A stretch of DNA of 64,000 nt from NCBI GenBank assembly GCA_944332265.1, contig CALVJQ010000006.1, positions 1,021 to 65,020 of the forward strand, read 5' to 3'. Positions 38,661 through 41,208 of the stretch are shown piece by piece (positions within the stretch are counted from its first letter, which is position 1; each line of letters starts with the position of its first letter). The position numbers were made by a program, and so were the translations under genes. This DNA is from an uncultured Bacilli bacterium. GTDB taxonomy: Bacteria > Bacillota_I > Bacilli_A > RF39 > UBA660. The notes below the pieces were generated by a model. The model made no database searches. It had not been told where the DNA came from and saw only the letters and a list, made by a program, of their open reading frames with translations.

Positions 38661-39533
38661 TTAAATTTTGTTAAATTTATTATTTTTCTTAGCCATAGCT
38701 ACAGCGCTTATTGCAATTAATGCTCCAGCAATCAAAATAGCATATGAGATGAATGCTCCAGTATCTGGATTTGGTTCTAATTCAGGGATGACTTTCATAT
38801 GAAGTTCAGTACAGTATAATTTTCCGCCTTCTAATCCAGCAACATTATCGCCACCACATTCTTCTTTATCCCCTTCTAAGCAAGTTAAGTAATTAGCATA
38901 TTGTTGTTTGTTTTCAATATTCCATACTTTAACACACACTTGACCACATGAACCAGTAGCTTGTGATGCTTCATCTAATTTTACTTTAATTGTACCAATT
39001 GTACCATATACGGCACCTGAAGATGGTAAAACACTTTTTACTGAGTCACTTAAGTTACTAGTGATAGATGCTTTAGTGAAGGCATCATTATCAGTAGTTG
39101 AATAGTAAACTGCACATCCAAAGTCTGATGCGTCACTTTGTCCTTCAGCAATGTTTACATTACATCTAAATTCAACGTTACCACCTGCTAGTTCAAGAGT
39201 AGCTGTTCCTTCACTTGAATTAACTGATGATGGTTTAGTGAAAGCACTTTTTACGCCAGACATACCATCTTTAATTGATGCACCTTCTAAACGTAAATCT
39301 TTAGTTGTGAAAGCTTGAGCAACAAAACCATGTAATGAACCACTACCATCAGTACTACCACTTGGTTGACCAATAATGTAACAATTAGCTTGTTCTCCTG
39401 CCTCTATACTATTAGGATCACATTCTACACTAACTTGTGTCAAACTAAAATCAGCAGCATGAGTTAATGACATAAAAGAAAATGTACAAATTCCTAATAC
39501 TAGAGCAAATAATAATTTGTTTATTTTTTTCAT
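38661..39533 (-). CDS. Cys-rich cell-wall-anchored surface protein with SrtB-type NPDTG sorting signal
   Basis: Signal peptide MKKINKLLFALVLGICTFSFMSLTHA. The C-terminus reads NPDTG, then a hydrophobic stretch (AFISYAILIAGALIAISAVAMA), then KKNNKFNK. The mature part has ten Cys. By eye the gene is less AT-rich than its neighbours. Confidence 0.75.
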   Translation of the reverse strand: MKKINKLLFALVLGICTFSFMSLTHAADFSLTQVSVECDPNSIEAGEQANCYIIGQPSGSTDGSGSLHGFVAQAFTTKDLRLEGASIKDGMSGVKSAFTKPSSVNSSEGTATLELAGGNVEFRCNVNIAEGQSDASDFGCAVYYSTTDNDAFTKASITSNLSDSVKSVLPSSGAVYGTIGTIKVKLDEASQATGSCGQVCVKVWNIENKQQYANYLTCLEGDKEECGGDNVAGLEGGKLYCTELHMKVIPELEPNPDTGAFISYAILIAGALIAISAVAMAKKNNKFNKI

Positions 39534-39666
39534 AATACCTCTCCTATACTTATTTTTCCTTATTCTGATTATATTATAACATGTTTTTTTATCTTGTGTT
39601 AATTTTTTTTTAAAAATATACTATTTTATGTTATTATATTTGTATAGAATAATTAGTGGTGAGCAT

Positions 39667-41208
39667 ATGAAGAAGATAACAATAATAATTAAAGACAATT
39701 CACTTATTTTCAAATTTCGTACTAATAAACCAGTAGGTCCTAACCTATTAAATACGAATGTCATTTCTAATAATGAATTAGTATTTAGTGATGAATATAT
39801 TAAGGAGAATACTAAATTAGTAAGCTTATTCATATGTGATTTATTTAAGGAAAGACAAATTAAGGAAGTAATTATTAGTAATAATGAATTAGGTCTTATA
39901 GTTGCTGATATTTTAAAGAAGTTGCCAACTATTGATAAGTTGACAATTATTGACGATGATAACCTTTCTTATTCAATGTGTGAACTAATTGTAAAGTCAA
40001 GAAATATTAAAGCTCTTGATTGTTATGGAATACCACAATTTATGATAGAAAAACTAGATAATCATGGAATAAAAGTTAATTCGCGTAATGAAGTATTATT
40101 TACTAGCAATTTTATGGCAGAAAATAATTTGACTTCTTTTTCTAAAATATATTATAAAACTAGTATTAGAATAAATGATGTCTTGAATAAAGAGGATATT
40201 GAAGATATTAAAACTTTCTTAGCAATAAATAAATATTTAAAAGCTATTCATTTTGATAAATATTCTTTGGATAATATAAATTTAATTGTTGAATTATTAA
40301 AGAATGCTAAAGTAAAAAATAAGGTTTTACAAATTCATGATGATATAGATGATACAACTGATATAACTGGTTTAAGAAATTTAAATAAAGATTTAAAAAA
40401 GAAATATAAGATTAAAATTTCTTTAGTTTATTCAAAAGATTATTTAGAGAGAAATTATTTACAACAAATTATTTTTACGACACTTAAGATATGTGCTTTA
40501 ATTATTTTTGCAATTGTGGCATCAGTATGTGGTTATATCTTATATAATAATCATGTGTCAGAAACTAAAATAAATAAAATAAAAGATGATATTGAAGAAA
40601 TAATGAGTGATGATACTAGTAATACTCATGGAACGGAAGATATTATTAATTCATATGATAAATTAAGAGAAATAAATCAAGATATAATTGGATGGCTGAC
40701 AGTTCCTGGAACTAATATTGATTATCCAGTTGTTAGAACAACTGATAATAGTTATTATTTAACAAGAAATGTTTATAAAGAAAAAGATTATAATGGTTGG
40801 GTTTTTATGGATTATCGTAATAGTATTGATTCTTTTGATGATAACACAATTATTTATGCCCATAATCGTTTTACTAGCGGTGTTATGTTTGGATCATTAC
40901 CAAAATTACGTAAAAAAGATTGGTTAAAAAAAGAAGAAAATCATTTTATTACTTTTAATTCTCTATATGAGGAAGGAACTTGGGAAGTTTTCTCAATATA
41001 TGAAATAAATGTTACAAGCGATTATTTATTAACTAATTTTTTAGATGCTGAGGAAAGATTGGATTTTTATAATATGTTAGCTAAACGAAGTGAATATGAT
41101 TTTAAAGTTGAATTAAAAGAAAACGATAAGATTATTACCCTATCGACATGTTTAGATAATAATGAGAGATTTGTTGTACATGCAGTATTAGTGCAAAATA
41201 ATAGTTAG
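39667..41208 (+). CDS. srtB: class B sortase with ~285-aa N-terminal cytoplasmic extension
   Basis: The C-terminal ~215 aa align block by block with S. aureus SrtB (INQDIIGWLTVPGTNIDYPVV, VFMDYRN, NTIIYAHN, IITLSTC, ERFVVHAVL). TM segment IIFTTLKICALIIFAIVASVCGYILY. The N-terminal domain has LRR-like spacing. Start set at ATG 39667 (MKKITIII). Confidence 0.8.
   Translation: MKKITIIIKDNSLIFKFRTNKPVGPNLLNTNVISNNELVFSDEYIKENTKLVSLFICDLFKERQIKEVIISNNELGLIVADILKKLPTIDKLTIIDDDNLSYSMCELIVKSRNIKALDCYGIPQFMIEKLDNHGIKVNSRNEVLFTSNFMAENNLTSFSKIYYKTSIRINDVLNKEDIEDIKTFLAINKYLKAIHFDKYSLDNINLIVELLKNAKVKNKVLQIHDDIDDTTDITGLRNLNKDLKKKYKIKISLVYSKDYLERNYLQQIIFTTLKICALIIFAIVASVCGYILYNNHVSETKINKIKDDIEEIMSDDTSNTHGTEDIINSYDKLREINQDIIGWLTVPGTNIDYPVVRTTDNSYYLTRNVYKEKDYNGWVFMDYRNSIDSFDDNTIIYAHNRFTSGVMFGSLPKLRKKDWLKKEENHFITFNSLYEEGTWEVFSIYEINVTSDYLLTNFLDAEERLDFYNMLAKRSEYDFKVELKENDKIITLSTCLDNNERFVVHAVLVQNNS

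Follow-up and report, generated by a model that had tools for sequence, protein, structure and literature searches.

Textbooks describe sortases as extracellular enzymes held on a bare membrane anchor, and the charged tail of the sorting signals that they process as a non-specific retention device. Why, then, would a sortase carry a folded domain ahead of its membrane helix, on what is predicted to be the cytoplasmic side? The question is raised by a locus on contig CALVJQ010000006.1 of an uncultured Bacilli bacterium, within a stretch of 64,000 nucleotides (here the window; G+C about 26%). Three genes lie between 38661 and 45454: a gene for a putative sortase substrate on the minus strand, the sortase gene on the plus strand, and a further plus-strand open reading frame (ORF) of 1390 amino acids (aa). 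The best overall explanation, favoured by a slender balance, is that the sortase and its neighbour form a dedicated pair in which the N-terminal domain of the enzyme (N-domain) would dock the tail of the substrate.

The sortase ORF at 39667-41208 (+) runs uninterrupted for 513 aa, and its parts follow in the order 268-aa N-domain, transmembrane (TM) helix at aa 275-293, acidic linker and class B sortase (SrtB) domain. Its C-terminal half belongs to the class B sortases (TIGR03064 / MEROPS C60B), as the original prediction for this locus had it. The NCBIfam model TIGR03064 matches aa 273-500 with 179.6 bits against a cutoff of 153.75, and Pfam Sortase matches aa 344-509. Among PDB sequences, the SrtB chains of Bacillus anthracis, Clostridioides difficile, Listeria monocytogenes and Staphylococcus aureus match at 1e-32 to 1e-24 (1.2e-32 for B. 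anthracis SrtB, 2oqw), and SrtB chains as a whole down to 1e-21. Foldseek with a full-length AlphaFold2 (AF2) model, whose confidence in the catalytic domain is moderate only, placed SrtB chains in its top 19 positions (E 2.8e-17 to 1e-12, TMt 0.64-0.79), the best being 2oqz (E 2.8e-17, TMt 0.70). His399 (in IYAHNRF), Cys495 (in TLSTC) and Arg501 are all present and align with the corresponding residues of B. anthracis SrtB; across a 27-member family alignment the catalytic His and Cys are invariant and the Arg is at least 90% conserved. The sole name given in the sources to any listed family member is ‘sortase B’.

The usual SrtB layout has a short N-terminal anchor directly before the catalytic domain, whereas here a folded domain of 268 aa precedes the TM helix. 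The large N-terminal extension expected from first reading is real, although it comes to about 270 aa rather than about 285 aa. Its start needs some care. The mechanical ORF begins at ATG 39628 (526 aa), the same start called in an identical database protein, P0001. Both P0001 and its 85%-identical relative P0002 are called from this upstream ATG (39628-39666) and thus have 13 extra residues, MLLYLYRIISGEH. The start is taken at 39667 because all homologues start or align at the MKK encoded there and because the ribosome-binding site GTGGTGAG lies just 5' of that ATG, while no such site is found at 39628.

This disagreement over the start codon is the one point in favour of regarding the fusion as an artefact of gene calling or of a frameshift. 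Against it stand the uninterrupted frame and the homologues: the 120 best-scoring ones listed are 510-584 aa long, align over 97-100% of the query with 55-100% identity and have a well conserved N-domain. An artefact, which the original prediction had foreseen as a way of being wrong, is thereby excluded. Those shorter matches to the N-domain that were inspected stop inside or just past the TM helix, as fragments would.

Where does the N-domain lie? Of all Kyte-Doolittle windows in the sortase, just the helix at aa 275-293 reaches 1.6 (peak 2.52), and AF2 embeds it within one long predicted helix, aa 257-312. The 30 residues before it hold 7 K/R and 2 D/E, and the 30 after it 3 K/R and 7 D/E. 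The protein begins MKKITIIIKDN..., which is no signal peptide. On the far side, the linker has pLDDT below 50 at aa 311-329 and is rich in indels in family alignments. With one TM helix, no signal peptide and a positive-inside bias, an N-in orientation is the sole topology that places the catalytic domain outside, and by these topology rules the first ~270 residues would be cytoplasmic, in agreement with the side that was first proposed for them. That the fusion is real, that the enzyme is an SrtB and that its N-terminus faces inwards are jointly held with high confidence.

The N-domain has no meaningful match in Pfam, NCBIfam or PADLOC, nor among PDB sequences in a profile search. When 1.84 billion cluster representatives were searched with an N-domain profile (HMMER), no more than 237 proteins reached E <=1e-3. 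The full-length matches among them are all 507-565 aa long, and each has the domain at residues 1 to ~268 with the sortase fused behind it; because every full-length match has this architecture, the N-domain exists only within the fusion sortase.

Foldseek searches with the full-length model returned only sortases, so the N-domain was modelled alone. AF2 (pLDDT 86.4, pTM 0.76) predicts a beta-hairpin and then about nine strand-helix units (aa 37-253, pLDDT ~90) with a period of ~27 aa. Against PDB, Foldseek gave nothing below E = 1e-3; the LRR domains of NLRP7, NLRP3, NLRP2, tropomodulin, leiomodin, Skp2 and Dia2 appear mixed with designed TIM barrels, those of NLRP7, NLRP3, tropomodulin and Skp2 at E 0.01-0.1. 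Against BFVD the top matches are giant-virus ‘leucine-rich repeat’ (LRR) and F-box proteins (E 6e-4 to 4e-3, Foldseek probability 0.82-0.99). Repeats of the LRR/RNI type are a typical scaffold for binding peptides or proteins. A TIM-barrel-like enzyme was considered and rejected: H195, H224 and D226 are kept in close homologues but not family-wide. The family alignment shows no conserved set of catalytic-type residues, which argues for binding or scaffolding rather than enzymatic activity. Family-wide, at 30-58% identity, N188 alone is invariant in the N-domain, while several short motifs are kept from 30 to 100% identity: NTNxI, CY, SxFMxxNxLxxYSxIYYKK, INKxLK and the juxtamembrane YSKEY.

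What might such a domain bind? The 290-aa product of the divergent gene has the layout of a wall-anchored protein: a signal peptide, a pentapeptide ending in TG, a hydrophobic segment (aa 260-278) and a basic tail. Signal-peptide cleavage is predicted between THA and AD, an A-x-A-like site. The secretion and sorting signals first read in this protein are thus confirmed, but the ten Cys then ascribed to its mature part are ten in all; Cys16 lies inside the signal peptide, leaving nine. Conserved Cys columns are seen in aligned relatives. No Pfam family reaches its cutoff (Gram_pos_anchor, 15.3 bits against 20).

Scanning one genome per species for the N-domain yielded 44 loci (numbered here with the prefix L), from uncultured gut metagenome-assembled genomes labelled ‘Bacilli’, ‘Tenericutes’, ‘Erysipelotrichaceae’, ‘Ca. 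Coprovivens’, ‘Mycoplasma sp. CAG:472’ and ‘Coprobacillus sp. CAG:605’. Four lack upstream DNA, so that the remaining 40 and the window make 41 places that can be read. In 41/41 the next gene upstream of the fusion sortase encodes a protein with a signal peptide and this kind of sorting signal; it is divergent in 40, and L010 and L027 have two such genes each. The pairing persists down to a sortase identity of 32-36%, and among the loci at 32-45% it is kept although the mature substrates can no longer be aligned. A scan of metagenome DNA for the tail sequence gave seven matches: the three with usable context are all beside a fusion sortase, two are too short to judge and two fall by chance inside other genes. 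The co-occurrence that the original prediction called for is thus present at every readable place and at three metagenome loci besides, bearing out its proposal of a dedicated sortase-substrate pair, which is now likely.

The duplicated substrates differ in kind. The two in L010 (794-2630) are near-identical 283-aa copies, each with a 36-aa signal, and those in L027 (7200-9909) have 269 aa and 472 aa (22 Cys), again both with a 36-aa signal.

The sorting signal is far more constant than the protein that bears it. It is 36 aa long in 33/33 tabulated orthologues, while their mature parts vary in length between 174 and 472 aa and share just 25-41% identity with the window protein. Within the pentapeptide of these 33 signals, T(-33) and G(-32) are invariant and P(-35) is present in 30 (the exceptions being NVETG, TTETG and FAETG). 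Position 1 is N in 11/33 and otherwise S, T, G, V, P, D, A, E, L or F. The motif is therefore better written xPxTG than NPxTG, as position 1 is free while P, T and G stay constant. The tail follows the consensus [KR][KR]-x-x-K-[FIL]-[Y>N,S,F,H]-[KR]-[VI]-COOH, with K(-5) in 32/33 and a last residue that is V or I in 32/33 and L once. Its last five residues are the same across clades whose TM segments have diverged (AFASYAVLAAG..., ASLPLTIVAIG..., SNIPFMIIGTG...).

SrtB-type signals include NPQTN in S. aureus IsdC and NPKTG in B. anthracis, and the window motif, which begins with NP as in IsdC, was first likened to them. That likeness does not hold across the family, given an N at position 1 in only a third of the signals and constant P, T and G; the motif comes nearer to the (S/P)PxTG of C. 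difficile SrtB (PMC4155245). The scanned neighbours of the fusion sortase also include no NEAT or haem genes. An Isd-type haem-uptake SrtB of the NPQTN/NPKTG class, or, failing that, the artefactual fusion discussed above, is barely credible as an account of this locus.

Could the fusion instead be the general, housekeeping sortase of its lineage, with the neighbour one of many scattered substrates? C. difficile SrtB handles 7-8 (S/P)PxTG proteins (PMC4155245), and the xPxTG core here is similar. The substrate searches covered the window and related loci rather than whole genomes, which also counts against an exclusive pairing, further substrates elsewhere being possible. A 45-aa profile of the signal retrieved only three fragments from the protein database, too few to count substrates by. 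Against a housekeeping role, genes with this signal are found only beside the fusion sortase gene, both in the ~0.7 Mb of related loci and in the 64-kb window, which has no second signal-bearing ORF. The tail matches in metagenomes are sortase-adjacent wherever context existed, and two of the loci, L028 and L031, have a conventional short sortase as well. A housekeeping role is accordingly improbable.

If the pair is dedicated, how might its two halves meet? The fusion sortase would be a type II membrane protein with its SrtB domain facing the cell wall. The substrate precursor would be exported and then held in the membrane by its C-terminal segment, and Cys495, judging by its homologues, would cleave xPxTG between T and G and transfer the substrate to peptidoglycan. 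On the inner face, the N-domain, linked to the TM helix by one continuous predicted helix, may together with the juxtamembrane YSKEY dock the conserved nine-residue tail of the membrane-retained precursor. Docking would give specificity for a single substrate and would fix the distance of the scissile T-G bond from the membrane. It would also permit a degenerate position 1 in the extracellular pentapeptide, because specificity and register would then be supplied from inside. Tail docking is the simplest link between the two halves because a binding-type fold at the inner membrane face, found only in this sortase, is paired with a signal of fixed end and fixed length. As a role for the N-domain it is possible, and is offered tentatively. 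The fuller version, a substrate read from two sides in which the N-domain binds K-[FIL]-Y-[KR]-[VI]-COOH as a molecular ruler, so that the fixed 31 residues past T-G present xPxTG to the active site outside the cell, is rather doubtful for now.

Several observations weigh against this proposal. Docking is a deduced step and not an observed contact, and cleavage and anchoring are likewise presumed from homology. The signal could owe its fixed length and conservation to nothing more than a membrane segment that evolves slowly in related genes. In L040, the most divergent locus, the signal has 33 aa, the only other length seen, and ends in KKKKYV; in L042 the gene with the signal shares the strand of the sortase gene, and its tail ends in SKFPQA. 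For the N-domain, the LRR assignment is borderline: Foldseek TM-scores are 0.2-0.32 and never above 0.32, hhalign of sub-alignments detects no internal sequence repeat (probabilities <1%), and for 14 members Pfam LRR models give zero matches, even up to E = 10. ‘RNI/LRR-like beta-alpha repeat’ is thus a reasonable description of the predicted fold, with family membership not established. The LRR-like character suggested for the domain from the outset survives in the ~9 units, the ~27-aa period and the borderline structural matches, and fails on Pfam and on internal repeats.

The N-domain might also be a structural module without a specific ligand, serving oligomerisation, membrane positioning or stability, with the tail a retention signal only. 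Its single invariant residue fits this, as do the few positions that reach 90% conservation, a conservation below that of the catalytic domain and the lack of a demonstrated binding pocket. But the 268-aa domain is present in all 237 clusters, with no full-length member lacking it, which argues for a selected function, and its short motifs persist across the whole range of identity. Moreover, an ordinary retention tail needs positive charge only, not a K-[FIL]-Y-[KR]-[VI] end at a fixed distance. A purely structural role is therefore quite unlikely.

A third possibility is that the N-domain links the enzyme to a partner or signal in the cytoplasm, so as to localise or regulate it, and that the 1390-aa protein is the partner, as was first suggested. 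Its gene lies on the same strand, the scan found no terminator-like site between it and the sortase gene, and the two are probably co-transcribed here. Without a TM helix the protein should be cytoplasmic, and LRR-like domains do bind proteins. The gene is syntenic past the sortase in L001-L020, L027, L045, L046 and L050, and stays beside the fusion down to 24-29% identity (L017, L019, L025). It is, however, missing beside the fusion in L022, L023, L026 and L028-L042, which keep both N-domain and substrate; in some of these a gene for a GT2 glycosyltransferase fused to TPR repeats follows the sortase directly. Because clades that keep the pair can lack it, the 1390-aa protein is a clade-restricted accessory at most and not obligatory. 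It has no match in Pfam, NCBIfam, PADLOC or PDB (Pfam also on 10 members, PDB by profile, with a 10-member alignment in use), and so suggests no mechanism. Nor would a partner of this kind explain the rigid signal and its conserved tail. The first suggestion is thus left with weak support, from synteny in one large clade and probable co-transcription, and coupling to a cytoplasmic partner is unlikely. Tail docking within a dedicated pair continues to be the preferred reading.

Features of the sortase-substrate locus, in window coordinates (RBS, ribosome-binding site)
Feature	Position	Strand	Remarks
Hairpin terminator, readable on both strands	38638..38659	.	directly past the substrate stop codon
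Cognate substrate gene (probable), secreted protein of 290 aa	38661..39533	-	signal peptide and sorting signal; mature part diverges fast between relatives
Sorting signal, 36 residues	38664..38771	-	NPDTG, then AFISYAILIAGALIAISAVAMA, then KKNNKFNKI-COOH
Substrate signal peptide	39456..39533	-	aa 1-26, MKKINKLLFALVLGICTFSFMSLTHA; hydrophobic window aa 7-25
Divergent intergenic region, 133 bp	39534..39666	.	one promoter-like site per strand; sortase RBS GTGGTGAG at 39656-39663
Sortase N-domain, predicted cytoplasmic	39667..40470	+	aa 1-268; predicted beta-hairpin and ~9 beta-alpha units (RNI/LRR-like)
Single transmembrane helix	40489..40545	+	aa 275-293, ICALIIFAIVASVCGYILY; seen by hydropathy and AF2; flanking charges favour N-in
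Acidic linker, predicted extracellular	40546..40656	+	aa 294-330; length variable among homologues
Class B sortase catalytic domain	40657..41208	+	aa 331-513 and stop codon; TIGR03064, Pfam Sortase, PDB SrtB chains, Foldseek
Catalytic codons	His399 40861-40863; Cys495 41149-41151; Arg501 41167-41169	+	residue identities checked
1390-aa orphan protein	41282..45454	+	73 bp past the sortase; no TM helix; membership in the system uncertain

The intergenic region has a minus-strand promoter-like site (39602..39573, TTAACA-18-TATAAT with an upstream TG) and a plus-strand one (39609..39637); these are consensus matches only, with no enrichment over shuffles. Terminator-like sites number five in the scan, where shuffles would give 0.7. 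In C. difficile, some sortase substrates are under riboswitch control; no riboswitch, for c-di-GMP or any other ligand, was found around the sortase and substrate genes.

The conventional sortases mentioned above are SrtB-like, lie a few kb from the fusion in a ‘Mycoplasma sp. CAG:472’-like clade and are found at 2917-3384 in L028 and 407-1126 in L031. The L031 enzyme has 239 aa, an N-terminal TM helix only and ~30% identity to the catalytic domain of the fusion.

What kind of cell does the pair serve? The window holds wall and spore genes, among them a PBP5-type DD-carboxypeptidase and SpoVAD, and two ORFs at 34710-35673 (+) that, read by eye, are presumably CotJB and CotJC. The best explanation is a walled, spore-forming, uncultured gut member of the Bacilli; related uncultured orders are predicted to be mostly walled (PMC10868615). 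In closer relatives, a DUF6568 membrane protein (181 aa, 34035-34580, minus strand) and the cotJB/cotJC-like ORFs are syntenic with the sortase locus. The mechanical cotJC-like ORF (GTG 35041) overlaps cotJB by ~80 nucleotides (nt), and homologues align from about its residue 25; the true start probably lies near 35113.

Past the 1390-aa gene, 45463-46560 (-) encodes the GT2 glycosyltransferase with its fused TPR repeats, 46657-48309 (+) a CAP-domain protein that is anchored in the membrane and has a linker rich in Ser and Gly, and 48332-48997 (-) a 221-aa protein of collagen triple-helix repeats; a second CAP-domain protein is encoded at 58713-59999 (-). Together with CotJB/CotJC, this cluster of genes of surface- or spore-like appearance prompts one to ask whether a spore or exosporium-like layer might be where the sortase pair acts.

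The stretch from cotJC to the substrate gene contains two orphan genes of 346 aa and 604 aa with a 1-nt overlap (35722-38576, -), and a perfect TTGACA-16-TATAAT stands beside them at 38624..38597. The two are found in L001, L005, L009, L014, L015, L020, L027 and L043 and are absent from L002, L006 and L007, where cotJC abuts the substrate gene, so that they look like a variable two-gene cassette. Neither belongs to a family in Pfam, NCBIfam or PADLOC. The 346-aa protein ends in a C-terminus (YEYRHPNGLRILYIAEGNYIFICSLFYKDKQ) that may, on impression, resemble toxins of the RelE/ParE type. The 1390-aa gene stands out by composition, its region at 42-44 kb having the lowest G+C of the window (19%) and a strongly positive GC skew of about +0.3. 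For three further large ORFs, at 9734-11602, 17386-19374 and 50403-53390 (622, 662 and 995 aa), Pfam gives nothing at E <=1e-5, and the genome seems rich in large lineage-specific proteins.

What would the proposal change? Dedicated SrtB-substrate pairs and recognition of P-x-T-G are already known. Apparently undescribed are a sortase with a folded cytoplasmic domain, the N-domain itself and a fixed-length signal with a conserved C-terminal pentapeptide; literature searches on sortases with cytoplasmic or N-terminal domains turned up no account of the fusion architecture. In ~237 sequence clusters from uncultured gut Bacilli, a folded domain, predicted to be cytoplasmic, has been added to the enzyme and paired with a signal of fixed length and conserved end. 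If domain and tail are indeed linked, anchoring specificity would be set from inside the cell, a new principle of matching sortase to substrate. This would be the first sortase bearing a cytoplasmic domain for substrate selection and the first case of a charged tail acting as a specific recognition element, not as a simple stop-transfer or retention device, and it could provide a handle for engineering orthogonal sortase-tag pairs. If the N-domain only positions or stabilises the enzyme, the fusion would be a modest architectural variant. The undescribed domain and the 36-residue signal can in any case be used to annotate surface proteins in RF39- and RFN20-like gut bacteria, which have no cultured members.

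To our knowledge there is no case of an LRR-type domain fused to a sortase. Like the RNI-type LRRs (NLRP proteins, Skp2 and other F-box LRRs, tropomodulin), the modelled N-domain alternates short parallel beta-strands with helices at a period of ~27 aa; unlike them, it has no sequence-profile match and no detectable internal repeat, and its TM-scores are low. The B. anthracis and S. aureus SrtB-IsdC systems, whose sortases provide the best catalytic-domain matches (2oqw, 2oqz), also encode the enzyme beside a dedicated substrate. They belong, however, to isd haem-acquisition loci with NEAT-domain substrates and short N-terminal anchors, whereas position 1 of the motif is variable in the substrates of the fusion sortase. 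NF040525, an LPKTxAVK-specific class B sortase, and NF033846, an NPXTG-anchored protein, offer another parallel, that of a specialised SrtB with one substrate family and a private signal. The present pair falls outside both, the sortase reaching 73.8 bits where NF040525 requires 200 and the substrate 17.2 bits where NF033846 requires 23.5, and neither model includes a cytoplasmic domain.

The closest functional comparison may be C. difficile SrtB (CD2718), which recognises (S/P)PxTG and cleaves between T and G, has only an N-terminal membrane anchor at residues 2-25, with no cytoplasmic domain, and serves 7-8 substrates that are scattered (PMC4155245). The signals of two of these substrates are 33 and 38 aa long and end in unrelated tails, ...CKIKRN and ...KRRKMKKS (PMC4155245). 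The fusion sortase shares with this enzyme the class B fold (36-38% identity over the catalytic domain), a P-x-T-G core rather than NPQTN and the absence of a link to haem uptake. It departs from it in having a 268-aa domain of predicted cytoplasmic location, one adjacent substrate, rarely two, and a sorting signal fixed at 36 aa with a conserved C-terminal pentapeptide.

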